This document shows, one piece after another, positions 2,271 through 18,995 of a DNA stretch of 32,000 nt; positions within the stretch are counted from its first letter, which is position 1, and every line of letters starts with the position of its first letter. Where the stretch lies: positions 4,050,001 through 4,082,000 of the forward strand of contig LT962688.1 in NCBI GenBank assembly GCA_900234795.1, given 5' to 3'. The position numbers were made by a program, and so were the translations under genes. The notes under the pieces were generated by a model. The model was not told where the DNA came from. It saw nothing but the letters and a program-made list of their open reading frames with translations, and did not search any database. This stretch comes from Methylorubrum extorquens (GTDB taxonomy: Bacteria > Pseudomonadota > Alphaproteobacteria > Rhizobiales > Beijerinckiaceae).

Positions 2271-2402
2271 GGGTGGTATCCGCGCATCAATAGTTAGTAC
2301 TATGCCAGGGTTACTAGAAACGGAAATTTAGGGGTAGGCAGTCGAACCTCGGCATGCGCACGGCTTGGCTGACGAAATGAATCGATACGCAAATATTAAC
2401 AG

Positions 2403-3749
2403 TCATCGCTCAAGGAATGCGCGACTAAATTGGTCTTGAAGCGGCTTCATCAGGTAGGACATTGCTGTTCTCTCATCCGTAGCGACCTGAACTTCGACGG
2501 GCATTCCAGGGATAAGGCGGGCCGAGCCTCCCAGGCGTTCAATCTCGCCATCCTTGAGCTCGACATGCCCGATATAGAACGCCTCGTCCCGTGGGCCCTT
2601 CGTCGTCGAGGGCGAGACGTAGGTCAGCACTCCCTTGAGTTCGGGGGTGGTGCGCTGGCTGAAGGCGGTGAAGCGGACCCGGGCCGCGCGGCCGACGCCG
2701 ATCTGGTCGATGCTGGTCGGCGGGATGCGGATCTCGATCTTAAGCCGCGCGTCCTCGGGTACCACGGTCGCCAGGATGTCGGCGGGGGTGACGACGCCGC
2801 CAACCGTAAAGGTCTTCAATTCGTGCAGGATGCCGGTCACGGGGGCACGGATCTCCGTGCGCGTCAGCCGGTCGTCCAATGCCACGCGACGGTTGCTCAG
2901 CTCTGCCGCCTTGGCATCGACCTGACTGAGCTCGCGCTGTGCCTCGGTCCGCGCGGTGTCTGCGATGGCGAGGATCTGGACGCGGATCTCGCTCGTCCGC
3001 GTCTTCGCCCGCGCGATGGAGGCTTCCAACGACCCCTGCTCGCCGGCCAGGCGGTGCTTGTCGCGGGTGATCGGCAGGAAGCGGGAACTCTCGTAGAGCT
3101 GCTTCTCGACGAGGATCGATAGCTTGCCATGCTCGGTGGTGAGGACGGCCAGTTCGTCTCTCTTGGCGTCCCGCTGCTTCGTGAGGCCGGCGATCTCCTC
3201 AGCGATCTGCCCGATCTGGAGTTCGAGCTGCTGGCGCTGGCTGTCACGGCCGGCGAGGTTGCCCCGGAACAGCCGGAGTTCGCCCTCCAGGATCGACTGC
3301 ACCTCGGCGCCCTGGTGAAGCAGGGCTTGCGGGAAGCTGACCTCGCGCTGCCCGTCGCGCTCCGCCAGGAGCCGCGCCTTCTTGGCGGCGAGTTCCACCA
3401 ATTGTCCCTTCACGATGGCGAGTTCCGCGCGGGTCTGCGCGTCGTCGATTCTGAGGAGCACTTGGCTGGCCGTGACCGGCTGCCCATCGCGCACGAGGAT
3501 CTCGCCGACCACGCCGCCGTCGCGGTGCTGCACGGACTTGGCTCGCTGATCGACGGCGACGGATCCGGAAGCGAGGATCGCGCCGCTGAGATCGGTCGTG
3601 GCGGCCCAGCCGCCGACGCCGCCGACGAGCGCCGCGCCGAAGATGAACCCGGCGACGATGCGCGGGCCGACGGAGAACGCGACGTTCGTGCGGGATTGCG
3701 GTTCGTGCCGCCGCAGGGGGCGCGGCATCCGATCGGGAGATGTACGCAT
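2403..3749 (-). CDS. HlyD-family type I secretion periplasmic adaptor (membrane fusion protein)
   Basis: The 448-aa ORF has an N-terminal cytoplasmic stretch plus one TM helix (IVAGFIFGAALVGGVGGWAA), a lipoyl-like VQHRDGGVVGEILVRDGQPVTASQVLLRIDD, long coiled coils, and the C-terminal LIPGMPVEVQVATDERTAMSYLMKPL typical of PrtE/AprE/HlyD adaptors. A strong SD (GGAGAAGGA) precedes ATG 3749. Confidence 0.9.
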   Translation of the reverse strand: MRTSPDRMPRPLRRHEPQSRTNVAFSVGPRIVAGFIFGAALVGGVGGWAATTDLSGAILASGSVAVDQRAKSVQHRDGGVVGEILVRDGQPVTASQVLLRIDDAQTRAELAIVKGQLVELAAKKARLLAERDGQREVSFPQALLHQGAEVQSILEGELRLFRGNLAGRDSQRQQLELQIGQIAEEIAGLTKQRDAKRDELAVLTTEHGKLSILVEKQLYESSRFLPITRDKHRLAGEQGSLEASIARAKTRTSEIRVQILAIADTARTEAQRELSQVDAKAAELSNRRVALDDRLTRTEIRAPVTGILHELKTFTVGGVVTPADILATVVPEDARLKIEIRIPPTSIDQIGVGRAARVRFTAFSQRTTPELKGVLTYVSPSTTKGPRDEAFYIGHVELKDGEIERLGGSARLIPGMPVEVQVATDERTAMSYLMKPLQDQFSRAFLER

Positions 3750-3770
3750 GATCCTTCTCCGGCTTCGCTC

Positions 3771-5992
3771 TCAAGTGTGGAATGTCGGCGGTTCGGGCAG
3801 CGGCGCGATCGTGAAGCGCAGCAAGTGCTCGCCATCGAGGACGACGGTGGTCTCGTAGGCGTCGTTATGGTCGAGGTCGGCCGAGACGACCGTGCGGTCC
3901 CGGCCTTCGGAACGATCGAACCGGCACTGGATCCCGGTCGGTGCATCGCTTTCGCCCCGGAGCGCCTCCGCGAGCGGGCGCCCGGCCGCGGTCTCCTCCT
4001 TGAACAGGGCGTAGCGGACCAGATCGATGTAATCGCCGACGGAGAAGTCCGTGATCTGCACGGTGCGGGTGCCATCGCGCGGCTCGGCCGGAGCGGCGAA
4101 TGCGTACACGTCGTCGCCGCCGCCGCCGGTGAGCACGAGATCCCGGCCGCCCACCACGAAGCGGTCGTCGCCCGATCCCGCGATGATCGCCTCGACCGAG
4201 GTGATCCGGTCGAGGCCGAGCTCCTGAGCGGACACGGTCTCGTTCCTCAGGTCCACCACCAGATCGACCGTGGCCGCCGACAGGTCGAGCGTGTCCCGCC
4301 CCCGCGCCGCCGTCGACCGTGTCCTCCGCGCTGTCGAGGGCGAGGATGATCACGTCGTCGCCCGCCTCCCCCGAAACGAGGTCACGCCCGGCCCCGTCCG
4401 AGAGGATGTCCGCACCCTCGCCGCCCTGCAGCCGATCGTCACCCGCATCCCCGACGAGCACGTCGGCACCGGTGCCGCCGGACAGGTCGTCGGCGCCGGC
4501 CGCGCCGTAGAGGCTATCGTTGCCCTCGCCGCCAAGGAGGAGATCGTCGCCGTCGCCCCCATCCAGGATGTCGCGCCCCCTCGCCGCCATCGAGCAGGTC
4601 GTCGCCCGCCTCGCCGAACAGAAGGTCGTCGCCCGCCTCCCCGAACAAGCGGTCGTGACCCGCCCCGCCCGAGACCCGATCCGCGCCCGCCCCGGCGAAC
4701 ACGACGTCGTCGCCCGGCCCGGCCAGGACCGTGTCGGCGCCGTCGCCCGCGATCACGTGGTCGCTGCCGCTGCCGGCATCGACGAGGTCGTCGCCACCGC
4801 GGGCGTCGACATTGTCGTCTCCCGCACCGGCCGCGATGTCGTCCGCGCAGGGTGTGCCGAGGATGAGGTCGTCCCCGTCCGTGCCGCCGATCAAAGCCCG
4901 TTCGAGGACGGTCAGATGAGCCGTACGGGCGACCGAGAACTCGCCGTCCGTCACCGCGTAGGTGACCGTGACCGGACCGGGCGCGTCGGCGTCGAACACC
5001 CAGCCCGAGCCGTCCGCCGTCACGGTGCCGGAGGAGACTCGGACGTCGCGCACGCTGAGTGCGTCTCCGTCCGGATCGCTGGCGCCGCGCAGGAGATCGC
5101 TCAGGGCGATGGTGAGGAGTGCGCAGCCCGCGACATCCCCGAGCTGGACCGGGCCGTTCACCACGGGCGAGCGGTTGCGTTGCCCCGCCGGTCCGTCGTC
5201 CCGGCCGCGCGGCGGCGTCGCCGGATCGACGGGACGCGGATCGCCGCCCGGCGTGGAGTCGGGAGGGATCCGGACGCCGCCGTCCGACGGCCCCGGACCC
5301 TGTGGGTTCGATCCGCCTTGCCCTGTCGAGCCTTGCCCAGTCGAGCTTTGCTCGCTCGAGCCTTGCCCGACCGAGCCTTGATCCGGCCTGTCGGCCTTCT
5401 CCTCTCCCAGCGGTCGGGGGGCCGGCTGTGCCTCGTCGCCGGGCTCCTGCGCATCCGCTTCCGGGTGGAATGCGTCCCGTGGCCGGCCGCCGCCGCTCGG
5501 CTGCCCGCCTCCGCGCCCGCCCGATCCGGCTGCGAGGGAGCCGCCGTTGTCGTTGATCGGCTGGGGGATGACCGGAGAGGCCTTGAAGTCGCCGAGGTCC
5601 GGATGCGCGTCGGGCCTTGCGAAGCGCAGCCCGCGCGCGAGCAGTTCGTGCCCATCGTCGAACAGGGACATGCCGGATTGCAGAACCGGGGATGGCGGTT
5701 CGGCCAGTGGCTTCGGTGCCTCGGCGGCCTTTGCAGGGGTGGGCGCGGCGAGCTCCTCGGAATGGACGAGGCGCAGGGCGTCGGCGCGTGCCGCCACGAT
5801 CTCCGGGTCCACTTCCTCTGCCAGGGTCGCGCGGGGCAGAAGCAGGGATTTGAGGTAGGCGGCCACGGACGCGACCGCCACCGCGGCATAGTAGGGGACG
5901 CCGGATCGCCGGTCTGCGCTGCGCGAGACGTAACGCTCGGCACCCTCGGGCGCGTCCCGCCCGGGCTTCGTGCCCTTGATCTCGATCGTCAT
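3771..5992 (-). pseudogene. Membrane-anchored cadherin-like / RTX Ca-binding protein (~739 aa if repaired), interrupted by two +1 frameshifts at G5 runs
   Basis: Three track ORFs are consecutive pieces of one protein: 4514..5992, 3865..4590 and 3771..4259. RTX nonapeptides run straight across both junctions. Removing one G at 4576..4580 gives ...[16 protein letters not shown]..., and removing one G at 4299..4303 gives ...[18 protein letters not shown].... The N-terminus has a TM helix (VPYYAAVAVASVAAYLKSLLL). This is followed by a Pro/Ala linker, GQGSx pentapeptides, a cadherin-like module (NRSPVVNGPVQL...DPDGDALSV...TVTYAVTDGEF), RTX repeats and a C-terminal tail. ATG 5992 overlaps the ABC gene stop (ATGA). 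Confidence 0.75.
5311..5385 (-). repeat. About five imperfect 15-bp tandem units encoding G-Q-G-S-x pentapeptides (in-frame, inside the RTX/cadherin gene)
   Basis: The plus strand reads ...ccttgccctgtcgagccttgcccagtcgagctttgctcgctcgagccttgcccgaccgagccttgatcc.... The minus-strand translation is DQGSVGQGSSEQSSTGQGSTGQGGS. Confidence 0.6.
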
Positions 5993-7755
5993 GCGGGCAC
6001 CCGCTCCGGCATGGAGCGCTCCCTGTTGTCCTGGGCGCTGTCGGGCTTGGCCGCACCGTCGCGGGCGGCCTTGCCGAGGATCGCCTCCTTCGGGCCGAAT
6101 GCCGTGAGCTTGCCGTCCTGGATCACGGCGATCAGATCCACGGCCGCCAGCACGCTCGGGCGGTGGGCGATCACGATCGCGAGGCCGCCGCGGGCACGCA
6201 CGCCCTGGATCGCCGCGGCGAGCGCAGCCTCGCCCTCGGCATCAAGATTCGCGTTCGGCTCGTCGAGGACGACGAGGAAGGGATTGCCGTAGAGCGCGCG
6301 GGCGAGGGCGATCCGCTGCCGCTGCCCGCCCGAGAGCGCCGTCCCGAGCGGTCCGAGTTCGGTCTTGTAGCCGTCGGGCATGCGCAGGATCATCTCGTGC
6401 ACGCCCGCCGCCTGCGCGGCCGCCACGACCAGCGCCGGATCGCTGTCCTCGGCCAGGCGCGAGATGTTCTCCTCGACCGTCGCGTCGAGGAGGCAGACCT
6501 CCTGAGGCAGGTAGCCGATCATCCCTCCCAGGCTCGCCTCGTCCCATTGCGGCAGGTCGGCCTCGTCGAGCCGCACGCTGCCGCGCAGCAGCGGCCAGAT
6601 GCCGGTCAGCGCGCGGCCGAGGGTGGTCTTGCCGCCACCGCTCGGTCCGATGACGCCGAGCGCCTGCCCGGCCTTGAGCTCGAACCCCACATCCGAGAGG
6701 AGCACGCGACCCGAGCCGGGGGCCGCGACCGTGATGTGGCCGACCCTGAGCGACCGGTGCGCCGGCGGCAGCGTCATCGGCGGCTCGGCGGCGGCCAGGG
6801 CGATCACGGTCTCCTTCAAGCGCCGGAAGGCGGTCCGCGCGGCCAGGATGACCTTCCAGTTGCCGATCGCTTGGTCGATGGGCGCCATGGCGCGGGCGGA
6901 GGTGATCGAGGCTGCGATGATCGCCCCGGCGGAGAGTTCGCCGCCGATGACGAGGTAGGCGCCGAGCCCGAGCACGGCCGATTGCAGGATCATGCGCAGG
7001 ACGCGCGCGATCGCCCCGAACGTGCCGCTGATGTCGGTGGTGCGGGTCTGCAGGTCGAGGTGTTCGTCGTTGGCGCGGCGGTAGCGGTCCACGGCCCGGT
7101 CGGCGAAGCCCATCGCCTTGAGCACGTCGGCGCTGCGCGCGTTCGAGTCCGCGATGGCGTTGCGGGCCACCACGGCCTGCTGCGTGGCGCCGGTCCAGCG
7201 CCGGGTCAGGAGTTCGGCGAGGATGGTCAGCAGCGCGAGGACGACCGCCCCCGCGACGGTGAGCGCGCCGAGATAGGGGTGCAGCATGTAGACGAAGACG
7301 AGGAAGACCGGCACCCACGGCAGGTCGAACAGGGCGACGAGACCGGGGCTCCCGAGGAAGCCCCGCACCGTGTCGACGTCGCGGCCGCGCTCCATCGCCT
7401 CCGCGGTCGAGAAGCCGAAGCGCGGCATGTCGATCCCGACCCGCTGCGCCAGCGGAGCGACCCGGCGGTCGAACTGCGCCCCGAGGCGAACCAGGATCTG
7501 CGAGCGGAGAACGTCGAACAGGCCCTGCGCCAGGTAGAGTCCGACGGCGAGGATCGACAGCCCGACGAGCGTCGGCAGGCTCCCGCTCGGCAGGGCGCGG
7601 TCGTAGACCTGCAGCATGTAGAACGAGCCGGTCAACGCCAGGATGTTGATGATGCCGGACATCCCGAACAGGAAGACGAAGGGCCCCCGAACGCTTTGGG
7701 TGAGCTGCTCGGCGCATCGCTGCTGAGCGAGCTTTTTCTGATCTCTGGAACGCAT
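5989..7755 (-). CDS. Type I secretion system permease/ATPase (PrtD/AprD/HasD type, no N-terminal C39 peptidase domain)
   Basis: The 588-aa ORF begins directly with the TMD (FLFGMSGIINILALTGSFYMLQVYDRALPSGS, typical of the PrtD family). It has Walker A GPSGGGKTT, the ABC signature LSGGQRQRIALARAL and Walker B FLVVLDEPNANLD. The SD GGGGGAGAG precedes ATG 7755. Confidence 0.92.
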   Translation of the reverse strand: MRSRDQKKLAQQRCAEQLTQSVRGPFVFLFGMSGIINILALTGSFYMLQVYDRALPSGSLPTLVGLSILAVGLYLAQGLFDVLRSQILVRLGAQFDRRVAPLAQRVGIDMPRFGFSTAEAMERGRDVDTVRGFLGSPGLVALFDLPWVPVFLVFVYMLHPYLGALTVAGAVVLALLTILAELLTRRWTGATQQAVVARNAIADSNARSADVLKAMGFADRAVDRYRRANDEHLDLQTRTTDISGTFGAIARVLRMILQSAVLGLGAYLVIGGELSAGAIIAASITSARAMAPIDQAIGNWKVILAARTAFRRLKETVIALAAAEPPMTLPPAHRSLRVGHITVAAPGSGRVLLSDVGFELKAGQALGVIGPSGGGKTTLGRALTGIWPLLRGSVRLDEADLPQWDEASLGGMIGYLPQEVCLLDATVEENISRLAEDSDPALVVAAAQAAGVHEMILRMPDGYKTELGPLGTALSGGQRQRIALARALYGNPFLVVLDEPNANLDAEGEAALAAAIQGVRARGGLAIVIAHRPSVLAAVDLIAVIQDGKLTAFGPKEAILGKAARDGAAKPDSAQDNRERSMPERVPA

Positions 7756-7784
7756 GGCAGGCTCTCCCCCTCGTCAGGCAAGTG

Positions 7785-7811
7785 GGTCGGGCCCCTGGCC
7801 GGGGCCCGACC
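7785..7811 (-). promoter_or_regulatory. Perfect 11-bp GC-rich stem-loop between the giant substrate gene and the ABC exporter gene
   Basis: The sequence is ggtcgggcccc-tggcc-ggggcccgacc, 4 nt downstream of the substrate stop (7816..7818). No U-tract follows on the minus strand, so it is not a canonical intrinsic terminator. Confidence 0.6.
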
Positions 7812-7815
7812 AGGA

Positions 7816-10800: not shown

Positions 10801-13800
10801 GCTGATGGTGCGCGCGTCGAGGCCGTCGAAGATCGGGTTGATGGCCCTGTTGCCGTTGGCGTCGGCCTCGCCGTAGCGGGCCTGGGTCAGGCGGATGAAG
10901 GCTTGGTCGGCGCTGCCCCAGGTCGGGTGGTCGAGGTTGTTGCCGTGGCCGCTGAGCTCGCGGTAGCCCGTCGGCACGTCGTCGTCGCCCGCATTGTCAG
11001 GGCGCTGGCCGCGCACCAGCGCCTCCAGCCCGTCGATGTCGGCTGCCGTGTAGGCGAAGGCGCCGGTGACGCCCTCGCCGTGCCCTCCGTCGGCGCCTGC
11101 ATCCACCGTGATCCGCGGCATGCCGCCCGCGGCCGAGAAGGTGATGGTATGCGACCCGTTGGAGAGGGTCGTCATGCCGTTCGCGCCTGCGGCGGCGACG
11201 TAGTCCGCCCGGTTCGAGCCGGCCGGCAGTTCGATCACGTCCTGCGGCCGCAGAGTGCCGACGATGGTGTCGTGCCCCCCGTTCGAGCGGAAGACGATGC
11301 GGTGGGCCGAGGTGAGGGCGGCCATGTCCACGGTGTCGTCGCCCGATGAGCCGTCGATGGTGATGGTGTTGAAGTTGAGGCTGGTGCCGGTGAAGCTGCC
11401 GATCACCTGAATCGTGTCGCCGCCATTGGCACCGCCGTTCTGGCCCCCGGGCGACGTCACCTGGAGCGTGTTGACGCGGATCTCCTCGACGTTGTCGAGT
11501 TCGGCGACAATCGCGGCGGCACCCGTGCCGTTGCGGGTGATCACGATCTCGGTCGAAGCGGCGAGCTGCGCCTCCGTATTGCCCGCGACCTGGAGCCAGG
11601 CTGACCGGCTGTAGATGCGGAAGGTCTCAGGCCCCGCGGTGCCGTTCAACTGGTAGGTATCGGTGCCGGCTCCGCCATCGACGCGGTCGCGCCCGTCGGT
11701 GCTGACTTGAATGAACGTATCGTTGCCGCCGCGGCCGTTCAGGATGTCGTTGCCGGCGCCACCGTTCATCGTGTCGTTCGGCTGGATCCCGAAGAGGGCG
11801 GTGTCGGCGCCGTTTGCGATGTCGTCACCGGCCGTCCCGTTGAAGGTCCTGTTGAGCGCCGTGCCTGTGAAGGTGTCGCCGACGACGCCGGTGGGCGCCG
11901 AGAACAGCTCTTCCGGATTTCCCGCGCCGTCGGTGAAGCTCACCCGCAGCCTCAGCACGTCCCCGACCTGGGCCTGGCCGGGCGTGTAGTTGAGCGTGCC
12001 GGCGGCGTTGCCGGCGATATCCGTCCAGGTCTGGCCGTTATCGCCCGATTGCTGCCAGCGCAGCGAGAAGGTCCCAAGACCGTCGGCGTCCTGGATCGCG
12101 GCGACCAGCGCGCCGAGCGGCTGGCCCTCCGTCGGCGAAACGAGCCCGTTCGTCGGCGTTGGGTCCGTGACGACGGGCGCCCCGGTCGCGACGGCGTTCA
12201 CGGCGACCTGCTCGACGTTCTTGAGCTCGGCGATGACGATCCCGTTGCGCACGACCACGGTCTGCGTGTCGTCACGGAACGACAGGTTCGCGAACTGCGC
12301 CCGGGCCTGGGCCAGCGTGAGCTGCTGGACGGGACCGGTCCCGTTCATGATCCGGAAGCTGTCCGTGCCGGCGCCGCCATCGACGAAGTCGCGGCCGTCG
12401 CCGGTCCGCCACAGGACGTTGTCGTTGCCGGCTCCCGCGAAGACGAGGTCGTTGCCCGCGCCGCCGCTGAGCGTATTGTTGCCGGCCGTCCCGACCACGA
12501 TGTCGACGGCCGCCGTGCCGTTGGCGACCAGCGTGTAGGGCGTGAGGTCGTTGCCCATCTGGATCTGCTCGATCGTGGTGAGCGTATCGACGCCGTCGCC
12601 CTCCGCTCCGAGGTTGTCGCTGACGACGACCTCGCCCTGCGCGTTCCGCTCGAAGCTGTAGGCCGCGATCGGTCCCGAGTAGATGGCGGTGTCGGTGCCG
12701 GCGCCGCCGATCAGACGGTCGTTGCCGTGCCCGCCGGAGAGTTGGTCGTCGTCGTTGCCGCCGTCGAGCGTGTTGTTGCCGGTCCGGCCGATCAGGGTGT
12801 CGGCGCCATCGTTGCCGAGGAGGGTGTCGTCGCCCGCGCCGCCATCGACCCGGTCGTCGCCGCTGCCGGCGTAGATGGCATCGTTGCCGACATCGCCCTC
12901 GATGTCGTCGTCGCCGTCGCGCCCCAGGATGACGTTCGGGCTCGTGGAACCCGCGATGTCATCGGCGGCGGCGGTTCCGACGAAGGCGGACTGGACGGAG
13001 GCCGTCTGCTGCAGGCCGGTATTGCCGGCGACCGTGCTGGTCCAGTTCGCGACCACCCGGATCTCGACGCCGGTCGCTCCGGTCGGCGTGAAGAAGGTGC
13101 CCCCGTTCGTGACCTGGCCGTCCGCGCCGGTCACGTTGCGCCACTGCCCGTTGTCGGCCAGCACCTGCCATTGCAGGGTCACGGGCCGGGTGGTCGCGTT
13201 CACACGGTTCACCAGCGTCGCGACGAGTGTCGAGGAATCGTCGCCGTCCGCGTCGAACGGTCTGATGGTGAGGCTGTCGAAGGGCTGGTTGAGAACCAGC
13301 GCGACGTCCGCCGTGCCGTCCGCGAAACGCAGCTTCTCGATGTTGCGCAGCGTATCCGTGCCGTCATCGACGGCGGGATTGGTCAGCGTGGTGTGGGTGA
13401 CGGTGAGCGTGCCGTTCGCCGCGCGGGTGATCGTGTAGTTCGCCCGGATGTCGTTGAACACGGCGGTGTCCACGTCCGCCGCCGTCGCTCCGGTGGTGAT
13501 CACCTCGCGGACGATTGCGAGCTGGGTCGGGCTGATCACCCGGTCGATCATCAGCTCGAAGAGCGACTTTCCGGCCCAGCCGCGCGCCTGATTGGCGGCG
13601 CTGTCGTCGAAGACGTGCTTCAGGCTGTCGGCCGTCGCCATCTCCTGGCCAGCATCCGCAGGATTGCGGATGCTGATGCGCACGTTCAGCCAGCGGTCGC
13701 CGTCGAGGATGTCGTTGCCACCGTTGCCCTGGAGCGTATCGTTGCCCGCGCCGCCCAGCAGGATGTTGCCGGCCTCGAAGAACTGCTGCCCGGAAGCAAG

Positions 13801-16800
13801 CGACACGATCTGGTCGAGGCCCGCGATCCGAGCGATGCCGGCCGCGTCGAGCCCGTCGTTGAAGAACACGCCCTCGTTTGCCGCCGTGATCGGCGCGCCG
13901 GCAGGCGCCTCGGCATCCGCGTTGGCGGCCGCGGTCCGGTCGTCGCCGATGAGCGTGTCGTTCAGCCGCCAGCCGGAGAGACCCTCCGTCTTGTCGAAGC
14001 GGTTGCGCAGGATGTCGGCTTCTTCGGTGGTGAAGATCGGGATGCGCATGTCGGCATTGGCCGCGATCTGGTTGCCCTTGTAGATCGCCCAATCGAAGCC
14101 GAACATGCCCTCGTTGCGCATCACGCTCTCGCCCTGGACCATGATGTCGTCGCCGGACTCGCCGTCGAAATCATGCTCGTCGCCCCCGGCAAACATGACG
14201 TCGTGGCCCTTGATGGCCGAGTTGAAGAACAGTTCCGAGTTGTCGCCGGCGGTGGTGTCGAAGCCGCCGCCACCCTCCATCCAGTCGTCGCCCTCGTTGC
14301 CCATCAGAAGGTCGGCGTCGTCGCCGCCGATCACGAAGTCATCGCCCTCGCCGGCAAAGACTTCGGTCGCATCGACGCCGACGAAGATCGCGTCCTTGCC
14401 GCGCCCGCCCATCAGGATGTCGATGCCGTTCGAGTTGGCGATGACGTCGTTGCCGTCCTCGCCCTTGAGGAAGTCGCCGGTATCGCCGGAATCGGTGATG
14501 ATATCGTCGCCCGCTCCGCCGTTCACGAGATCGACGCCCGCGCCCGCCTCGATCCGGTCGTCGCCTGCATCCCCCCAGATTCCGTCATCGCCGAAATCGG
14601 TGATGATGGTGTCGTTGCCGTCGGTGCCACCCACCAGCACATGCTCGCCGCCGGTGAAGCGGAGGTAGTGCCCGGTGGCGAAGGGCTGATTGAGCGCGGC
14701 CGGATCGACGACGGTTGCGTCGAGGTCGGCGGCCGGGCTGGCGATGGACTGCCCGGTGCGCAGGACGTTGCCGGCGCCATCGCGCAGGAACGGGTCGGCG
14801 GCCGGGTCGTAGCCGGGCGTCTGCGCTGGGGTCAGATCGGACCGGTAGGCCGGCGCCGTCCGCACGAGTTCGATGTCGTCCACGAGGATCTGCGCATCGC
14901 CGCTGCCGGTGTTGCGGATCTCCAGGCGAAGCTGAAGGCCCGCAAGCGCCGACGGGACAACACCCGTTGCGAGGGTGAAGGTGCCCCACTGCCCGTCGGC
15001 CGGCTCCGTCAGGGTCAGCGTCCCGAGGGTCACCGGGTTTGCCCCGCCGACCGCCACGAGGCGCGCCTCGGCGCCCGGCCAGGTGAAATCGGTCCGGTCC
15101 CCGACCTTGAAGCTGTAGGTGTAGCCGACGCCGGCCTGGAGGGTCGTCCCGCCCTCCTGCGAGAGCGTGGCGCCGCCGCGCAGCCACACGACGTTGGCGC
15201 CGTCGCGGCCGGCGGGGTCGACGACCGCGTCGGCCGGCGCGAAGAGGCCGCCGACGCCCCCGGCGATGGTCCAGCCGGCCGGGTTCGTCGTGGTGTAGTT
15301 GCCGTTGCCGTCGAGGATCACGCCCTCCTGGCCGGCGACCAGCGCCAAGCCCTCGAAGCTGCCGTTGGCGACCGCCACCGCCTCGGGGACGGACGAGCCG
15401 GGAGCGAAGCCGAGGCGCCCATCGGCACCGATCCGGAGCACCGGTGCGTCCAGCATGTCCGCCTGGGTCAGCGCGATGCCGAGCTTGGCTGCATTCGCCT
15501 TGAGATCGGCCCAGGTGACGGGGTTGCCGGCGCCGCCGACCCCCTCCTCGCTGCCGTCCACGAGCGCGCCCGTGGGGCTCCCGTCCGCACCGTAGCGCCG
15601 GACCAAGGCGTTAATCGAGGCGTGGTAGCCGCTCGCGCCCTCGTCGGCCGCGGTGCCGGGATCGTCGCGCACGACCTTGCCGAGGCCCATCGCCTCCAGC
15701 ACGGGGTCGTTTCCGGTCGGGTCGCGGCCGGGGGCGGCGCCGTTCTGATCGAGCTGGTTGGCGGCGTTCACCTCCAGCTCGAAGTCGTAATCGGCGAAGG
15801 CATCGACGCCGATATGGCGGGGCACGATGTCGTCCGCCGTGCCGCGGATGCCGTCAGGCCCCGGCAGCGACAGGCTCGAATTGGCGAGCATGATCTTCGA
15901 GAAGGAGTTCTGCTCCAACTCGTTGAGGAAGTTCTGCCCCTGGACGCGGCTGAGATAGTAGAACCTGTCGGCATCCTGCAGGTTCTCCATCTGGGCTTCG
16001 AAGATGGCGTTGAAGGTCGAGCCCAGCATGCCGCCGAACGGCATCTGCTTCTCGGCCAGGCCGCCGATCCAGAGATCGACCGCGCCGAAGCCCGTTTCCC
16101 GCCCGGCCCAGCTCCCGCGCGAATTGAGGTAGTCGAGGCGGTCCGTCGGTGCGCCCTCGCCGCCGAAGACCAGGGCCATGGCCGCGTCGCGCTTGGCCGC
16201 GAGCGTCGTCGCGGCGACAACGGTGCCGTGGGTGCCGTAAGCGGCGATGAAGTTCACCACCGAGAGCGGGTTCTTCAGGTTGGCCGCCATCTCCACCCAG
16301 CTCGTGTAGGGGGTGAGGAAGGTCGAGCCTGTCGCGGCGTAGAGCTGGGCTCGTGCCTCGTTGAGCGTCGGCGTGCCCGTATCGCGGCCGCGGGCGATGT
16401 TGATGGCGGCGAGATCGAGCGGCAGGCCGAGCAGATTGTTGCGCAGGGCACCGACGACGAACTCGTCGATTTCGCTGCCGCGTTCGATGGTCATGCCGCG
16501 CATGATCGCGGCCGCGCTCTCGTCGTGGGACAGGCCGCCGTCGTTGTCGAAGGCCAACGGATTGAGGAAGGCGTCGATCAGGCCGAGGTCGGCATCGAGC
16601 GCCTGCCCGTCCGGCCCGAGCCGCGGCATGTTCTCGGTCAGCATCGAGTGGCCGAAGCGGTAGACCGTATTGGCGAACTCGGCGAAGATCGACGGGTCGA
16701 TCTCGGTCACCGGATTGAACACGAAAGGATCGACCAGCGGTTGGATCTTGCGGGCGAATTCCTCGAAGACGAGGTGCTGGTACTGCATCTCGGTGGCGAA

Positions 16801-18573
16801 GCGCGCCGCCTGGAACAGCCGCTCACCGTCCCAGGACAGCGTATTGGCGTAGGCGAGCTGACCCAGCGCCGTCATCTGCGCGAAGTTGCCCGGCAGGGCC
16901 GCGATGTCGGTCGCCAGCCAATCGTTGATGAAGGCGAGATCGCCCGACTGCAGGATCGTGAGCTTATGGGCGTCGATCTGCCGGTTGTGCTCGGAATGGA
17001 AAATGTGGTGGACCGCGGTGAGGCCGATATTCTCGTTGCCGCGCCCGTCGCCGGTGACGAAGTGCCGGTCGAGAAGCTCGTTGTCGTATTCGAGATTGCG
17101 GCCGGTCTGCGGGTTCATCTGAACCGCATTGCCCGTGAGCGCGTCGGCATCGGGCCGGAGCACGCCGTTCACGGCGACCGGCACCGCGTTGTGGGCGATG
17201 TCGTCGAGGAACGCGTTGAAGGTGCGGGCCGCTGCGACCGTCTCACCGGCCTCAATGACGTTCTGCGTACCGTTGGGACCCACCAGAACGGTGCCGACGG
17301 GAAGCTGGATCGCCGAGAGCTTCAGCGGCTCGGCAAGGCTGCCGCTGGCATAGACGGCCAGCCCCCCAGGCCCCACCCCGACCATCACCTGCGGCAAGCC
17401 GTTGGCACTGCGGACGAACTCGCCGTAGGCATCCACCAGCAATTGCGGGACGGCCGAGACGTCGGCGTCCGTCAGTTCGATGCCGAGGATCGTCCGCGCC
17501 TGGAACTTGACGTCCGCCCAGGTGGCAAGGCCTCCGTCCGCGCCGCCGAGCAGGCGCCCGGTCGCGACGGGCCGCCCGTCCACAAGTGCGTATTCGCGCA
17601 GGAACACTTGGTGGGAGGCGTTCGAGGTGTAGGTCTGGTTCTGGTCGACGAAGGGTGTCGTGACATTGCGCTGCGAACCCTCAACCTGCGCGGCGCGCGT
17701 CAGCGTCATGAAGCGCAGATGCGGCGCGAGGTCGTCGGCGGTGCCGGCGAGGCCGTCCTGTCCGAGCACGAGCGGGTCGTCGGCGGCGAGCGGGACGTAG
17801 ACGGTGCCGTTCCCGCCCTTGGAGATCAGATCGAGGCCGTGGTCGAAGAACTGGCCGAAGAAGGTCATCCAGGCGTTGAACGGCTTCGACAGCCCCTCGT
17901 CGGGCGAGACGTTGAGGACGTCGATGGAGCCGTTGGTGACGGTGACGCCGGTCTGCTCCAGCAGCGCATCGAGGTTCGATTGCAGGACCGCGTGATCGCC
18001 GGCCGGGTTCGCGGCCTGAGCGGCCTTCAGGGCCTCGTGCGCTGCCGTGATGGCGCGCTGATCGGCGATGACGTTGTCCGAACCGGCGATCCTGAGCGCC
18101 GCGGCGATGGCGGCCGGGTTGTCGAGCGTGGCATCGACCACGAGGTTCGAGATGATCCGCGGGTCGGCATCGGCGACCGAACCGGGCAGCCCGTAATTGG
18201 TGTTCGTGATGATCGGAGCGCCCGGTCCGAGCGCCATCGTGTCCCCGTCCGCGTCGTTGAGGTAGGTCGGCTCGAAGAGTTGCGGCATCGGCTGGCCGGA
18301 CGAGCCCCAGGTCTCGCGGCCGGGCACGAGGTTGTTGTAGGTGCCGTCGACCGTGCGCAGCCCGTAGGGCACGTGGGGATCCGCAATCGCCTTCGGCGCC
18401 GCGGCATCGCCGAGCCAGTTGCCGGTGGCGTCGTAGAGCCCGCGATCCGTGAGAAGCGTGCCGGCGGCGTCGAGGCGCAGTTCCGTGAGCTTGATGCCGC
18501 TCGCATGCGCTTCGGCGATCTTGATCTGCTTCAGGATGAAGGTCAGATCTTGAAGATTGAGCTTAACGGCCAT
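7816..18573 (-). CDS. Giant secreted dual heme-peroxidase / RTX protein (3585 aa; 'long peroxicin'-type, T1SS substrate)
   Basis: The track ORF is 7816..18672. I place the start at ATG 18573..18571 (MAVKLNLQDLTFILKQIKIAEAH) because a perfect GGAGG sits 5 nt upstream. The protein has two An_peroxidase-type regions, at least six RTX nonapeptide blocks (GGxGxDxUx), and a C-terminal serralysin-like tail (GDKIDLSAIDADAGQAGNQAFTL...GDASPEFKLAIKGNTAPTAADFTL). Confidence 0.92.
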   Translation of the reverse strand: MAVKLNLQDLTFILKQIKIAEAHASGIKLTELRLDAAGTLLTDRGLYDATGNWLGDAAAPKAIADPHVPYGLRTVDGTYNNLVPGRETWGSSGQPMPQLFEPTYLNDADGDTMALGPGAPIITNTNYGLPGSVADADPRIISNLVVDATLDNPAAIAAALRIAGSDNVIADQRAITAAHEALKAAQAANPAGDHAVLQSNLDALLEQTGVTVTNGSIDVLNVSPDEGLSKPFNAWMTFFGQFFDHGLDLISKGGNGTVYVPLAADDPLVLGQDGLAGTADDLAPHLRFMTLTRAAQVEGSQRNVTTPFVDQNQTYTSNASHQVFLREYALVDGRPVATGRLLGGADGGLATWADVKFQARTILGIELTDADVSAVPQLLVDAYGEFVRSANGLPQVMVGVGPGGLAVYASGSLAEPLKLSAIQLPVGTVLVGPNGTQNVIEAGETVAAARTFNAFLDDIAHNAVPVAVNGVLRPDADALTGNAVQMNPQTGRNLEYDNELLDRHFVTGDGRGNENIGLTAVHHIFHSEHNRQIDAHKLTILQSGDLAFINDWLATDIAALPGNFAQMTALGQLAYANTLSWDGERLFQAARFATEMQYQHLVFEEFARKIQPLVDPFVFNPVTEIDPSIFAEFANTVYRFGHSMLTENMPRLGPDGQALDADLGLIDAFLNPLAFDNDGGLSHDESAAAIMRGMTIERGSEIDEFVVGALRNNLLGLPLDLAAINIARGRDTGTPTLNEARAQLYAATGSTFLTPYTSWVEMAANLKNPLSVVNFIAAYGTHGTVVAATTLAAKRDAAMALVFGGEGAPTDRLDYLNSRGSWAGRETGFGAVDLWIGGLAEKQMPFGGMLGSTFNAIFEAQMENLQDADRFYYLSRVQGQNFLNELEQNSFSKIMLANSSLSLPGPDGIRGTADDIVPRHIGVDAFADYDFELEVNAANQLDQNGAAPGRDPTGNDPVLEAMGLGKVVRDDPGTAADEGASGYHASINALVRRYGADGSPTGALVDGSEEGVGGAGNPVTWADLKANAAKLGIALTQADMLDAPVLRIGADGRLGFAPGSSVPEAVAVANGSFEGLALVAGQEGVILDGNGNYTTTNPAGWTIAGGVGGLFAPADAVVDPAGRDGANVVWLRGGATLSQEGGTTLQAGVGYTYSFKVGDRTDFTWPGAEARLVAVGGANPVTLGTLTLTEPADGQWGTFTLATGVVPSALAGLQLRLEIRNTGSGDAQILVDDIELVRTAPAYRSDLTPAQTPGYDPAADPFLRDGAGNVLRTGQSIASPAADLDATVVDPAALNQPFATGHYLRFTGGEHVLVGGTDGNDTIITDFGDDGIWGDAGDDRIEAGAGVDLVNGGAGDDIITDSGDTGDFLKGEDGNDVIANSNGIDILMGGRGKDAIFVGVDATEVFAGEGDDFVIGGDDADLLMGNEGDDWMEGGGGFDTTAGDNSELFFNSAIKGHDVMFAGGDEHDFDGESGDDIMVQGESVMRNEGMFGFDWAIYKGNQIAANADMRIPIFTTEEADILRNRFDKTEGLSGWRLNDTLIGDDRTAAANADAEAPAGAPITAANEGVFFNDGLDAAGIARIAGLDQIVSLASGQQFFEAGNILLGGAGNDTLQGNGGNDILDGDRWLNVRISIRNPADAGQEMATADSLKHVFDDSAANQARGWAGKSLFELMIDRVISPTQLAIVREVITTGATAADVDTAVFNDIRANYTITRAANGTLTVTHTTLTNPAVDDGTDTLRNIEKLRFADGTADVALVLNQPFDSLTIRPFDADGDDSSTLVATLVNRVNATTRPVTLQWQVLADNGQWRNVTGADGQVTNGGTFFTPTGATGVEIRVVANWTSTVAGNTGLQQTASVQSAFVGTAAADDIAGSTSPNVILGRDGDDDIEGDVGNDAIYAGSGDDRVDGGAGDDTLLGNDGADTLIGRTGNNTLDGGNDDDQLSGGHGNDRLIGGAGTDTAIYSGPIAAYSFERNAQGEVVVSDNLGAEGDGVDTLTTIEQIQMGNDLTPYTLVANGTAAVDIVVGTAGNNTLSGGAGNDLVFAGAGNDNVLWRTGDGRDFVDGGAGTDSFRIMNGTGPVQQLTLAQARAQFANLSFRDDTQTVVVRNGIVIAELKNVEQVAVNAVATGAPVVTDPTPTNGLVSPTEGQPLGALVAAIQDADGLGTFSLRWQQSGDNGQTWTDIAGNAAGTLNYTPGQAQVGDVLRLRVSFTDGAGNPEELFSAPTGVVGDTFTGTALNRTFNGTAGDDIANGADTALFGIQPNDTMNGGAGNDILNGRGGNDTFIQVSTDGRDRVDGGAGTDTYQLNGTAGPETFRIYSRSAWLQVAGNTEAQLAASTEIVITRNGTGAAAIVAELDNVEEIRVNTLQVTSPGGQNGGANGGDTIQVIGSFTGTSLNFNTITIDGSSGDDTVDMAALTSAHRIVFRSNGGHDTIVGTLRPQDVIELPAGSNRADYVAAAGANGMTTLSNGSHTITFSAAGGMPRITVDAGADGGHGEGVTGAFAYTAADIDGLEALVRGQRPDNAGDDDVPTGYRELSGHGNNLDHPTWGSADQAFIRLTQARYGEADANGNRAINPIFDGLDARTISNILGTQEAGLPKAGNDANIFFMAMGQYIDHGLDFLPKGGNGSIVIGAPGGGAPGSNNPADLTRGTVMAVDANGVPQHKNQTSPYIDQNQAYGSNALVGQFLRESDGAQGVGMRLLAGAPDPSNPAFNLLPTLRELVNHHWQADTIFAGPDGPISFRTYYTNFALSEGVTGTLFNTETGAFDPQVLTKLVGNFMGSGHPLLLDTNPFISVLDHFVAGDGRANENFALTSIHTVWARNHNYHVEKLLESGFEGTPEQVFQAAKMVNEAEYQRVVFDEYLETLIGGLRSDGTHGFETYDPSVDVAISHEFAAAVFRFGHSLIGQTLNVKGADGETIPVSLFDAFLNPSNDPSVFTAPLPPGYVPQPGYAQYGVGGIIGGTIEQAAEDVDFNIVDAVRNDLVRIRADLFAFNVARGWDVGLGTLNQVRADLAASTNPYIRDAVGFAGGDLSPYASWEDFQARNGLSDAVIAQFRQAYPDLVLAAADIAAFRVINGDIAIAMQADGTGVVKGIDRLDLWVGGLAEKHINNGVVGQTFWVVLHEQFDRLQDGDRFYYLERFDNFDFYENVVDGQGFSDIVARNTGLTVLPEHIFELSDEDGPGTEPGDDDDDGDTDPVGGDPDEDEDGPTDPVGGGGDAGGDEDDDDGVTDPVGGGGDPGDDEDDGQGDGDGTTDPVGGGDGDEDGPGTGPGTTPPVNHVPGVIAGGANGDVLNGTAGADTILGLDGDDNILAGGGADVVRAGAGNDFVDAGEGRDVVFAGDGDDDVLSGGGADMVYGDGGNDRILAGAGNDLVTAGAGRDTVIGGEGDDLFVAETGDGDDTYWGDEMGGGLGSDTLDMSAITANIAVNLGTGLAGRGSATSTQSGRDVLWGVENVVTGSGNDDITASDAANVMDGGEGSDTYRFGSAGAANGDTIEGFRPGDKIDLSAIDADAGQAGNQAFTLATGAAFTGVGQLLVTQETRDDGDYVVVQGNTAGDASPEFKLAIKGNTAPTAADFTL
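7819..8735 (-). other. C-terminal RTX block plus non-cleaved T1SS secretion-signal region
   Basis: The region reads GGANGDVLNGTAGADTILGLDGDDNILAGGGADVVRAGAGNDFVDAGEGRDVVFAGDGDDDVLSGGGADMVYGDGGNDRILAGAGNDLVTAGAGRDTVIGGEGDD, then DTLDMSAITANIAVNL and the tail described for the CDS. Confidence 0.8.
8760..9030 (-). repeat. Polyacidic linker with four TDPVGG(G) units at ~60-66-nt spacing
   Basis: The translation is SDEDGPGTEPGDDDDDGDTDPVGGDPDEDEDGPTDPVGGGGDAGGDEDDDDGVTDPVGGGGDPGDDEDDGQGDGDGTTDPVGGGDGDEDGPGTGPG. The DNA repeats (g)accgg(g/a)tcggt four times. Confidence 0.8.
9030..10985 (-). other. Peroxidase head 2 (animal heme peroxidase family domain); approximate bounds
   Basis: The distal motif is FFMAMGQYIDHGLDF (His codon 10711..10713). 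Other motifs are YIDQNQAYGS, HFVAGDGRANENFALTSIHTVWARNHNYH (about 10085..10160), FRFGHSLI, ARGWDVG and DLWVGGLAEK...DRFYYLER. Confidence 0.8.
11650..14640 (-). repeat. Central region with five dispersed RTX nonapeptide blocks and two WQ..G..W beta-sandwich modules (in-frame protein repeats)
   Basis: RTX blocks lie at about 14230..14640 (GGTDGNDTIITDFGDDGIWGDAGDDRIEAGAGVDLVNGGAGDD...), 13690..13770, 12690..12960, 12360..12500 and 11650..11850. The beta-sandwich modules lie at about 12990..13270 (TLQWQVLADNGQWRNVTGADG) and 11880..12130 (SLRWQQSGDNGQTWTDIAGNAAG). Confidence 0.75.
14860..15375 (-). other. Jelly-roll / carbohydrate-binding-module-like beta-sandwich (approximate bounds)
   Basis: The region reads ANGSFEGLALV...NPAGWTIAGG...VWLRGGATLSQ...GVGYTYSFKVG...GQWGTFTLA...LRLEIRN...ILVDDIELVR. 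The NGxFE start, the GW and the closing DDIEL pattern resemble CBM4_9/DUF642-type lectin folds. This is by eye only. Confidence 0.4.
15880..18400 (-). other. Peroxidase head 1 (animal heme peroxidase family domain); approximate bounds
   Basis: The distal motif is WMTFFGQFFDHGLDL (His codon 17839..17841). Other motifs are FVDQNQTYTS, HFVTGDGRGNENIGLTAVHHIFHSEHNR (about 16985..17065), FRFGHSML, ARGRDTG and DLWIGGLAEK...DRFYYLSR. Confidence 0.8.
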
Positions 18574-18694
18574 GGCCACCTCCCAAATACGGATACAGGC
18601 GAGCATCAGCCGGCCTGGTGATGGACGGAGCGCCCCTTGTCGCCGGGGAGGTCTCCAAACTGGCCACAGCATTCCATCAGCCGCGCAAATTGGC

Positions 18695-18910: not shown

Positions 18911-18995
18911 GCGAAGGGTGCGCCGTGGACTTGCCTGGCTCGGGTAATACTATCGGGGCGCTCCGGAATGGCCGCTTGAGCGACTTTGGAGCATC

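Follow-up and report, generated by a model that had tools for sequence, protein, structure and literature searches.

Giant haem peroxidases with RTX repeats are behind bacterial Mn(II) oxidation and benefit bacteria that colonise roots, and it is not understood how such proteins leave the cell unfolded, receive their haem outside and are kept at the surface. The Methylorubrum extorquens locus described here bears on this process, as it raises the question of what an RTX/cadherin protein is doing between the two transporter genes that follow a peroxidase gene. It lies in a window of 32,000 nt, which is the whole stretch of DNA that was analysed. An earlier note on this DNA had described a self-contained operon of five co-oriented elements with tight junctions. 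Order, strand and junctions stood up to our analysis; the RTX/cadherin gene is, on the other hand, not one open reading frame in this copy. The gene order is long peroxicin (MopA/PehA-type, RTX), ABC exporter, anchored RTX/cadherin protein (here called the middle protein) and membrane-fusion adaptor (Table 1).

Table 1. Positions of the features of the M. extorquens peroxidase locus within the 32,000-nt window.
Feature	Position	Strand	Basis or remark
Elements of the locus, whole	2403..18573	minus	all on the minus strand
5' leader and AT-rich upstream region, presumed promoter region	18574..18950	minus	sequence reading
Giant haem peroxidase, predicted to be secreted, 3585 aa, long peroxicin/MopA/PehA type	7816..18573	minus	Pfam; exact protein called elsewhere
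N-terminal peroxidase head, ~residues 60-900	15874..18396	minus	identity to single-headed relatives
HpiC1-like beta-sandwich domain, ~residues 1065-1236	14866..15381	minus	PF22825, 58.8 bits vs cut-off 27
C-terminal peroxidase head, ~residues 2537-3170	9064..10965	minus	phmmer against PDB
C-terminal RTX block and serralysin-type secretion domain of the peroxidase, ending in IKGNTAPTAADFTL	7819..8706	minus	HemolysinCabind
Hairpin, perfect 11-bp stem, 5-nt loop, 4 nt after the peroxidase stop	7785..7811	minus	GGTCGGGCCCC/GGGGCCCGACC
T1SS ABC permease/ATPase, PrtD family, 588 aa	5989..7755	minus	TIGR01842
Middle gene, N-terminally anchored RTX/cadherin protein, 739 aa if repaired	3771..5992	minus	two +1 frameshifts in this copy
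N-terminal module, MxIxVKGTK..RY..K...S..P, then hydrophobic helix ending A.YLKS	5837..5992	minus	alignment of 81 distinct N-termini
Spacer, disordered, with many P, G, A, D and S residues	5192..5836	minus	pLDDT <50
Cadherin-like Ig domain with conserved Cys	4895..5191	minus	PF17892 Cadherin_5, 50.8 bits vs 26.5
RTX beta-roll and C-terminal beta-sandwich of the middle protein	3771..4894	minus	HemolysinCabind, Peptidase_M10_C
G5 run with first extra G (frameshift 1)	4576..4580	minus	window GAGGGGGCGCGAC vs assemblies L009, L010 and L011 GAGGGGCGCGAC
G5 run with second extra G (frameshift 2)	4299..4303	minus	window GCGGGGGCGGGAC vs assembly L009 GCGGGGCGGGAC
HlyD-family T1SS periplasmic adaptor, 448 aa	2403..3749	minus	TIGR01843

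The peroxidase ORF has a Shine-Dalgarno sequence (GGGAGG) ahead of the ATG at 18573 and a stop at 7816-7818, and its exact 3585-aa product was called by gene callers in 11 Logan contigs. Pfam searches gave matches to An_peroxidase (PF03098, 424 bits), HemolysinCabind (191 bits, 13 stretches) and an HpiC1-like domain (53 bits), and a Zn_serralysin C-terminal match covers residues 3450-3583. The very long ORF, several RTX blocks, PERCAL inserts and haem-peroxidase motifs place the protein, as judged from sequence, in the already known long peroxicin/MopA/PehA family (peroxidase-cyclooxygenase superfamily, family 5), and it carries the GGxGxD nonapeptide repeats and C-terminal signal of a type I secretion (T1SS) passenger. 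There is no cysteine among the 3585 residues, and the end motif IKG.H.LT..DF.L is kept across loci. Long peroxicins have been described, including duplicated heads and two Ca motifs, and M. extorquens proteins of 3587 and 3618 aa were among the two-domain peroxidases listed in 2012.

Two An_peroxidase heads, together with the RTX blocks, bear out the two-headed giant peroxidase of the earlier reading. The N-terminal head, with FFGQFFDHGLD, GDGRGNEN and YRFGHS in its translation, is the one that the single-headed relatives also possess; its identity to their head is 47% for the Microvirga, Phyllobacterium and Rhizobium proteins. It also contains two PERCAL-type inserts (GQDGLAGTADD and GPDGIRGTADD; pattern G-x-D-G-x-x-[GN]-[TN]-x-D-D), a count that agrees with the published '2+0' for M. 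extorquens proteins. When searched against the PDB with phmmer, the C-terminal head matched lactoperoxidase (8s6c_A, E 1e-37) in an alignment spanning GQyiDHgLD, AGDgRaNE and fRfGHs. The mutual identity of the two heads is only 32%. The catalytic motifs are intact in both, with the distal His/Gln/Asp, the Arg-x-x-Glu and the proximal His kept (distal Q..DH, R..E, H).

The families of the peroxidase, the ABC protein and the adaptor are established here. The ABC protein scored 651.6 bits with TIGR01842 (PrtD family, cut-off 510.15), the HlyB and LssB models staying below their cut-offs, and the adaptor 341 bits with TIGR01843 (cut-off 208.65). Several details of the earlier note were reproduced: Pfam finds ABC_membrane and ABC_tran alone in the exporter, with no C39 or C39-like domain, the ABC stop overlaps the start of the middle gene (ATGA at 5989-5992), and a 21-nt gap with the strong Shine-Dalgarno sequence GGAGAAGG precedes the adaptor ATG at 3749. 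Its proposal of a dedicated RTX-type secretion unit for the peroxidase also agrees with the family matches of ABC protein, adaptor and passenger, and the locus thereby reads as a T1SS cassette that is predicted to serve a known kind of giant two-headed haem peroxidase. The peroxidase would be exported unfolded, C-terminus first, through the ABC protein, the adaptor and an unlinked TolC-type channel, fold on Ca2+ outside the cell and acquire its haem there. The unit is, however, not self-contained as had been claimed, because it lacks an outer-membrane factor: the coding-like ORFs of the 32-kb window include none that matches an OEP/TolC family, an absence already remarked on before, and such a factor may be encoded elsewhere in the genome. 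The presumed promoter region has a GC content of 0.60, as compared to ~0.70 in the flanks, and a consensus scan found no sigma-70 site in it. Consensus scans over 1600-19400 gave no promoters or terminators of note, an Rfam search for known RNA elements returned tRNA only, and the 243-nt stretch 3' of the adaptor gene folds no better than shuffles.

A stem-loop after the passenger gene is a classic RTX operon arrangement. The gap between the peroxidase gene and the ABC start is 60 nt and holds the perfect 11-bp hairpin seen earlier, at 7811..7785; the fold has an energy of -34.1 kcal/mol, with a z of only -1.97 against shuffles of this GC-rich stretch of the window. A hairpin 3' of the peroxidase stop is conserved across related loci, as a stem-loop occurs at the equivalent place in 73 non-redundant ones whose sequences are unrelated; the median stem has 12 bp, 97% of the loci have 8 bp or more, and the mean z is -3.7. 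We considered a canonical intrinsic terminator and rejected it because there is no U-tract: no T-run follows the hairpin in the window, and a T-rich tail is found in only 5 of the 73 related loci. Possibly, the peroxidase is made in excess, and the stem-loop may attenuate read-through or stabilise the 3' end of the peroxidase message.

Domain matches and alignment confirm what the earlier note found unusual, a Ca-binding protein with an N-terminal helix wedged between exporter and adaptor. With intact orthologues of 741 and 729 aa it shares 97% and 90% identity, respectively. A conserved N-terminal helix module, a fixed-length spacer and an NDN motif characterise the protein. Near-invariant residues of the module are I3, K6, P33, Y46, L47 and K48, and the AF2 model has a helix at 32-51 with a pLDDT of about 78-80. 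Lys plus Arg number 4.8 before and 2.8 after the helix, with net charges of +0.1 and -2.4, and the hydrophobicity of the helix in Methylorubrum is only moderate (Kyte-Doolittle 1.5). The spacer measures 126-213 aa in 78 loci, and within it the near-invariant NDN (here at 5546-5554) follows YLKS by 96-120 aa in the 67 sequences, out of 77, that showed both motifs. Run against 5.8 billion proteins, a profile of the 56-aa module returned only 14 short fragments (56-97 aa) and no new architecture, and was thus uninformative.

The cadherin-like domain and the RTX repeats are among the best-conserved segments of the family. Foldseek matched the former to cadherin-23 EC1, and the RTX/C-terminal part (PF00353, 81 bits vs cut-off 23; AF2 pLDDT >90) to the CyaA RTX domain and the C-terminal domains of PrtC/serralysin; against the PDB it returned generic RTX, serralysin and cadherin folds only, and none of the NCBIfam models reaches its cut-off for this protein. 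The number of RTX repeats ranges from 8 to 28. Two cysteines are conserved, which is unusual among T1SS passengers. The C-terminal end reads ..GHH.L.IVENA in most genera and is another tail in Methylorubrum; recognition by the exporter is not assured, because these ends differ from the conserved DF.L end of the peroxidases.

The earlier note had suggested checking whether the RTX/cadherin gene is conserved between the ABC and adaptor genes, and this holds in every related locus that we examined. A related ABC protein is present in hundreds of species, with 465 genome loci found, and the closest 80 (65-97% identity) were examined for gene order. The middle gene directly follows the ABC gene in 80 of 80 and the adaptor comes next wherever the contig continues, while a peroxidase ORF lies upstream in 71 (8 are cut by contig ends and 1 has no adjacent peroxidase). 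The start of the middle gene overlaps the ABC stop in 78 of the 80 (77 ATGA, 1 GTGA), and six annotated contexts, from Methylorubrum to Rhizobium, also show the cassette. The partner gene was verified in the 80 closest species' genomes, among them Methylobacterium, rhizobia, Bosea, Devosia, Paracoccus and Halomonas relatives. Evidently, the middle gene is a fixed and widely conserved member of the cassette, and the M. extorquens locus is one copy of a widespread four-gene cassette that has spread vertically and horizontally. In literature on peroxicins, MopA secretion, cadherin/peroxidase/T1SS and Methylobacterium peroxidase we found no description of the middle gene, which makes it an apparently undescribed and apparently new part. 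As a strictly co-inherited partner gene within a transporter pair, it is a concrete and genetically tractable lead. Acylation was also considered and set aside, since a HlyC-type acyltransferase gene follows the adaptor in a single locus (L050) and is absent from the window and the other loci.

From these features we infer a role for the middle protein. The explanation of the whole that we favour, and hold to be somewhat probable, is that the T1SS cassette exports the peroxidase, that the middle protein is its retained partner and that the frameshifts are assembly errors. The middle protein would be translated in step with the ABC protein, and its N-terminus (a short basic cytoplasmic tail and the helix) would be held in or at the inner-membrane part of the machine. 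The acidic, proline-rich spacer of at least 126 residues would let the cadherin/RTX module sit beyond the inner membrane, and this module would most likely pass through the same T1SS and be exposed at the surface, as a passenger that stalls itself and is retained. There it may dock the peroxidase; the sole test tried, for a shared cadherin domain, failed. Homophilic cadherin docking as a general mechanism was rejected, as the cadherin-domain HMM matches 13 of 71 partner peroxidases, weakly, and not the peroxidase of the window.

Carried further, a retained partner could be a new T1SS element, a passenger built to stall, which we put forward tentatively as a possibility. Its tail and helix would be locked to the ABC protein/adaptor in the inner membrane, a spacer of fixed length, ~100 residues, would run through the ABC-adaptor-TolC conduit up to NDN, and cadherin/RTX would be folded outside. 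If so, the stalled passenger would span the whole envelope and mark or hold the sites of peroxidase secretion, giving a new way to anchor proteins on Gram-negative surfaces and a counterpart in nature to the HlyA complexes that are stalled artificially for T1SS studies. On the same data, the middle protein could alternatively be a fourth structural subunit that sets the geometry of a T1SS subfamily. Some observations speak against a retained passenger. Once stalled, a passenger would leave its channel blocked, and P. putida secretes PehA and retains it at the surface without such a gene. The C-terminal end unlike that of the peroxidases, the two cysteines and the moderate hydrophobicity of the helix point the same way.

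The same helix with its basic N-flank, and the overlap with the ABC stop that suggests a fixed stoichiometry, would also suit a bitopic inner-membrane protein inserted via Sec/SRP or YidC, whose RTX/cadherin part folds in the periplasm as an accessory and is never exported. Such an accessory could, for example, serve as a ruler or scaffold as the machine assembles with TolC, or assist a very long passenger in a Ca2+-dependent manner, much in the spirit of SiiAB in the SiiE system. A ruler needs the constant helix-NDN spacing of ~100 aa, the two conserved cysteines could form a periplasmic disulfide, and the C-terminal end is unlike that of the cognate passenger. We nevertheless regard this as rather unlikely, as the RTX beta-roll, capped C-terminally in the serralysin manner, is the feature by which T1SS passengers are known, and since these bypass the periplasm a helper there has no obvious client. 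To our knowledge, no RTX protein works in the periplasm.

RTX repeats and a secretion-type C-terminal domain could equally make the middle protein a second, freely released passenger, i.e. an adhesin or a protein of the matrix that depends on Ca2+, similar to the rhizobial Rap/cadherin-like proteins, with a hydrophobic stretch that does not anchor. In Rhizobium leguminosarum, cadherin-like RTX proteins do travel through a T1SS as genuine passengers, and a variable repeat number is what adhesins have. We find this doubtful. The N-terminal 50 residues are among the best-conserved parts across at least four bacterial orders, the distance from helix to NDN is confined, and the gene is always found within the transporter pair and not beside the passenger gene; for a free adhesin no conserved N-terminus, fixed spacing or gene position is expected.

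As to the enzyme, its job by analogy may be extracellular redox chemistry, such as Mn(II) oxidation or the production or removal of reactive oxygen species. The earlier note had instead seen a weapon that makes hypohalous acid, hypothiocyanite or radicals, or a peroxidasin-like matrix crosslinker. Both heads do keep the catalytic residues of halide-oxidising animal peroxidases and the enzyme is predicted to be extracellular, but in the loci that we examined the cassette has no immunity, halide-related or matrix gene linked to it, and Pfam finds none of the LRR, Ig-C2 and vWF domains of the peroxidasin architecture in the giant peroxidase. In myeloperoxidase, chlorinating power is conferred by a Met. 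Of the bacterial relatives that have been characterised, some oxidise Mn(II), for which a superoxide route is reported, and others give better rhizosphere fitness and oxidative-stress tolerance; we consider the weapon or crosslinker improbable.

The middle gene had been taken for an open frame, and in the window it is broken by two extra G's. The frame opened at 5992 stops at 4514 and the protein continues in a second and then a third frame; removing one G from each of the two G5 runs restores a 739-aa protein. Aligned over 18,316 nt to an independent short-read assembly (L009), the window differs by exactly two gaps of one base each and by no mismatch, and L009 encodes the intact 739-aa protein. 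The same protein is found in five further contigs (grouped by mostly identical neighbouring proteins), and two further assemblies (L010 and L011) have G4 at the first site. The two insertions are probably assembly or sequencing errors, because an otherwise identical short-read assembly carries the intact gene. For annotators, this means that the two frame breaks need checking before the middle gene is called a pseudogene. That it is a true pseudogene in this strain (by real frameshifts or slipped-strand switching), leaving a plain three-part peroxidase exporter, is very unlikely: although the two breaks fall within 277 nt of one gene, with 25 other G/C runs of at least 5 in the three neighbours intact (Fisher p about 0.03 from G/C-run counts), and although P. 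putida manages without such a gene, the remaining 18.3 kb is base-for-base identical to an assembly where the gene is whole, the intact gene or the shorter run recurs in other assemblies, and two independent breaks in a lineage without other change are not to be expected. Usual phase variation needs runs longer than 4-5 G.

Operons of the hlyCABD type have the passenger gene first, a stem-loop right after its stop and the transporter genes tightly packed downstream. The Methylorubrum locus shares the passenger in first place, the post-stop stem-loop and the compact transporter genes, but differs in having no acyltransferase gene, an ABC protein of PrtD rather than HlyB type and a hairpin without a U-tract. 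The middle protein is a cadherin-like RTX protein, with Cadherin_5 and HemolysinCabind above the Pfam cut-offs, and resembles the rhizobial Rap/cadherin-like (CHDL) proteins secreted via PrsDE, which have a cadherin-like domain, bind Ca2+ and are T1SS passengers in Hyphomicrobiales. Unlike the middle protein, these are encoded away from the transporter, have no reported N-terminal anchor module and are not linked to peroxidases.

A passenger or an operon-encoded partner that stays cell-attached, as proposed here, is known from LapA/LapE/LapG/LapD, from MpIBP, from SiiE with SiiAB and from FrpC, which is held by the lipoprotein FrpD. The retained giant adhesins and the middle protein have in common a flexible segment to thread a channel and Ca2+-stiffened Ig-like/RTX modules. 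Retention in those systems works by means of a folded N-terminal plug, seated in the outer-membrane channel, and a site for cleavage by LapG, whereas the candidate anchor of the middle protein is a single hydrophobic helix with a conserved cytoplasmic tail; no LapA-type folded retention module is apparent in its AF2 model, which predicts a single helix followed by disorder. The six annotated contexts contain no LapG/LapD (BTLCP), MotAB-like or lipoprotein genes.

For the peroxidase, the MopA enzymes of Aurantimonas manganoxydans SI85-9A1, Erythrobacter SD-21 and P. putida GB-1, with those of Roseobacter AzwK-3b grouped alongside, share the long-peroxicin architecture, and alphaproteobacterial hosts are likewise found among them; the Aurantimonas protein has two heads, as here. 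MopA oxidises Mn(II), requires Ca2+ and haem and is located outside the cell. This dependence and the extracellular activity are known for the MopA enzymes, and the Methylorubrum protein is likened to them by its primary structure. PehA (PepA, PP_2561) of Pseudomonas putida KT2440, which lies in a genomic island, is flanked by the pehBCD T1SS and was detected on the cell surface. Like the Methylorubrum peroxidase, it has ~3600 aa, two heads, RTX repeats, PERCAL inserts and a dedicated T1SS at its side. The heads of PehA are recent duplicates, in contrast to the pair of the Methylorubrum protein with its mere 32% identity, and pehBCD encodes an outer-membrane factor, an adaptor and an ABC protein with nothing between the ABC gene and the adaptor, which is precisely where the cassette described here carries its middle gene.

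The earlier note had described a cassette of a giant peroxidase gene, a hairpin, an ABC exporter gene, an RTX/cadherin gene (here the middle gene) and an adaptor gene, and we found this layout in the window, a stretch of Methylorubrum extorquens DNA, with every part on the minus strand. The co-orientation and the tight junctions (60-nt gap with a perfect 11-bp hairpin, ATGA overlap, 21-nt gap) were confirmed; no C39 or C39-like domain was detected in the exporter, which is of the PrtD family, and no TolC-type outer-membrane factor was found within the window, both as the note had stated. The layout could however be confirmed only in part, because the middle gene is not one open frame in the given sequence. 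The frame starting at 5992 ends at 4514, and the protein carries on in a second and then a third frame. Deletion of one G in each of two G5 runs restored 739 aa, with 97% identity to an intact 741-aa protein and approximately 90% to the intact 729-aa proteins of M. populi and M. thiocyanatum. Against a short-read assembly with an identical giant gene, the window showed 0 mismatches and exactly two one-base gaps in 18,316 aligned nt. Both gaps are these extra G's, and the assembly encodes an intact 739-aa protein. Two further assemblies also agree with it at the first site. The most likely cause is errors of the source assembly, and a genuine double mutation of very recent date is less likely. 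The 25 other G/C runs of at least five in three neighbouring genes are all unbroken. Frame breaks in GC-rich repeat genes such as these are common artefacts; in two uncultured Alphaproteobacteria MAGs (L080, L081) the peroxidase gene is broken into many short overlapping ORFs and in L080 the middle gene is without its start, splits that look like assembly indel noise.

Coordinates of the cassette, its surroundings and two features of compared loci (window positions unless a locus is named)
Feature	Position	Strand	Remark
MetOD1-domain protein, HisKA_3 sensor kinase and LuxR-type response regulator genes	521-2270	-	3' of adaptor
HlyD-family adaptor	3749..2403	-	21-nt gap with GGAGAAGG 5' of gene
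Frameshift 2	4299-4303	-	G5 run, one extra G
Frameshift 1	4576-4580	-	G5 run, one extra G
ABC stop/middle-gene ATG overlap	5989-5992	-	ATGA
ABC exporter	7755..5989	-	PrtD-family T1SS, no C39 or C39-like domain
Hairpin	7811..7785	-	perfect 11-bp stem, 5-nt loop, in 60-nt peroxidase-ABC gap
Giant peroxidase gene	ATG at 18573, stop 7816-7818	-	GGGAGG precedes ATG; 3585 aa
AT-rich stretch	18700-18950		GC 0.60 vs ~0.70 in flanks
IS630-type transposase C-terminal remnant (..YNPDFNPIEQVFAKLK..)	18996-19256	+	immediately upstream of cassette
tRNA-Gly(CCC) gene	19500-19574	-	immediately upstream of cassette
220-aa ORF	19685-20347	-	coding-like GC3, several hydrophobic stretches
N-methylglutamate gene set	20384-30793
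Extra ORF, Phyllobacterium	L007:7689-8231		also L035, L036, L039, L041, L047; just upstream of ABC gene
Locus without adjacent peroxidase, with HlyC-type RTX acyltransferase gene	L050:9959-15936		3' of adaptor

Conservation of the middle gene between the exporter and adaptor genes had been suggested as a test of the cassette, and in both samples that we compared the gene was in place. The order peroxidase-RTX, ABC, middle gene, adaptor was seen in 6/6 sampled contexts encoding middle-protein homologues (Methylorubrum metagenome contigs, M. populi, Methylobacterium Leaf111, Microvirga, Phyllobacterium and Rhizobium leguminosarum), with 69-84% ABC protein identity among these genera. A scan with the ABC alignment, using one genome per species, gave 465 loci, and the 80 best (65-97% identity; hosts in Hyphomicrobiales, Rhodobacterales, Inquilinus and Halomonas/Vreelandella) all carry a homologue directly 3' of the ABC gene, followed by the adaptor wherever the contig extends. 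The ABC stop overlaps the middle-gene start in 78 of these 80 loci (77 ATGA, 1 GTGA), and 71 have an upstream peroxidase ORF. Contig ends truncate eight, seven of them with an upstream RTX ORF, most showing a peroxidase-type C-terminal end, and the eighth (L075) with the ABC gene at the contig start. The sole locus without an adjacent peroxidase (L050) has the acyltransferase gene after its adaptor gene, and secretin, prepilin-peptidase and PilN-like genes upstream. Large-plasmid copies occur in Phyllobacterium, Rhizobium, Ensifer, Paracoccus and Shinella, annotated only as 'cadherin-like domain-containing protein'. The extra ORF (110-235 aa) that separates the peroxidase and ABC genes in Phyllobacterium loci matches a portion of the ABC protein and is possibly a fragment duplicated from it.

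Approximately 78 non-redundant sequences define five parts of the middle protein. A conserved N-terminal module (MxIxVKGTK..RY..K...S..P) leads into a hydrophobic helix with an A.YLKS end, placed at residues 32-51 in the AF2 model, and is followed by a disordered, P/G/A/D/S-rich spacer of 126 to 213 aa (median 147) with a near-invariant NDN motif 96-120 aa (median 103) after YLKS. Next come a cadherin-like Ig domain, which is strongly conserved, an RTX beta-roll with 8-28 repeats (pLDDT >90 in the AF2 model) and a serralysin-type C-terminal beta-sandwich. The extreme C-terminus of the protein differs from the conserved IKG.H.LT..DF.L end of the peroxidases. The claim of a second Ca-binding protein with an N-terminal helix was borne out. 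The stretch preceding the helix holds more basic residues than the one following it, which is acidic, and this would fit an N-in topology. Approximately 80% of the family conserve two cysteines, at residues 290 and 382 in the repaired protein, and the peroxidase has none in 3585 aa.

Gene order and sequence motifs show a dedicated PrtD-type exporter pair genetically locked to a long peroxicin with intact catalytic motifs and to an anchored RTX/cadherin protein. The peroxidase would be exported unfolded via the ABC protein, the adaptor and an unlinked TolC; outside the cell it would fold on Ca2+ and acquire haem. The middle protein would be made together with the ABC protein, its N-terminal module keeping it at the inner membrane and the spacer letting the cadherin/RTX module sit far from the membrane. 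In the reading that we favour, the same T1SS would export this module but not the N-terminus, making the protein a self-stalling, surface-displayed passenger. In the main rival, it would be an ordinary accessory that Sec inserts and that faces the periplasm. The conserved N-terminus and fixed spacer are hard to square with a free second passenger. Docking of the peroxidase via matching cadherin domains was not supported. The interpretation in the earlier note is partly supported, its oxidant-weapon and matrix-crosslinker roles being hypothetical.

Taken alone, the window hairpin folds little better than shuffles (z -1.97). A stem-loop lies within a few nt of the peroxidase stop in 73 non-redundant loci, with unrelated sequences, a median stem of 12 bp (≥8 bp in 97%) and a mean z of -3.7. 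Just 5 of the 73 have a T-rich tail, and the structure is therefore conserved without being a canonical terminator. In classical RTX operons a stem-loop raises passenger over transporter mRNA; possibly the hairpin acts here as an attenuator or 3'-end stabiliser that favours passenger mRNA in the same way.

Together, the upstream transposase remnant, tRNA gene and AT-rich stretch resemble a genomic-island edge, and in M. populi (L004) the cassette is followed by a phage-integrase gene. The 220-aa ORF had no Pfam match, and beyond it lies a gene set of the kind that serves methylamine use by the N-methylglutamate route (glutamine-synthetase-like, glutamate-synthase-like, GXGXG, GATase, then DAO and sarcosine-oxidase-alpha-like, with an AraC/DJ-1 regulator gene within it), which is unrelated to the cassette. 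The MetOD1, HisKA_3 and LuxR genes, the last truncated by the window start, follow the adaptor in Methylorubrum and Methylobacterium; in Rhizobium, Phyllobacterium, Bradyrhizobium and others a related kinase/regulator pair sits upstream of the peroxidase gene in divergent orientation. One or the other arrangement is seen in L001, L004, L005 and many of L015-L094, and the pair is probably dedicated to regulating the cassette.

Other gene callers produced the identical giant protein. Pfam gave An_peroxidase (424 bits), 13 RTX-repeat stretches and an HpiC1-like beta-sandwich, and piecewise scans located further RTX blocks in the stretch separating the heads and at the C-terminal end. The two peroxidase heads (residues ~60-900 and 2537-3170) share only 32% identity, and both retain the distal Q..DH, the R..E and the proximal H, as read in the translation; lactoperoxidase aligns with the C-terminal head. 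The protein is a 'long peroxicin', a term for very long ORFs of proteobacteria in which the peroxidase head is duplicated and Ca2+ motifs of two kinds occur, and a 2012 listing of two-domain bacterial animal-haem peroxidases includes those of M. extorquens (3587 and 3618 aa). The characterised relative MopA oxidizes Mn(II), requires haem and Ca2+ and is extracellular, and by analogy Mn(II) oxidation or ROS chemistry may be the enzyme function here. In P. putida a three-gene T1SS (pehBCD) flanks the gene of PehA, which lies in a genomic island, and PehA was detected at the cell surface and improved rhizosphere fitness. Given these reports, the peroxidase, its RTX nature and the T1SS link are already known. 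No NCBIfam model covers the middle protein and literature searches found no published description of it; a conserved, translationally coupled, N-terminally anchored RTX/cadherin gene within the transporter pair appears to be new, and merits experiment.
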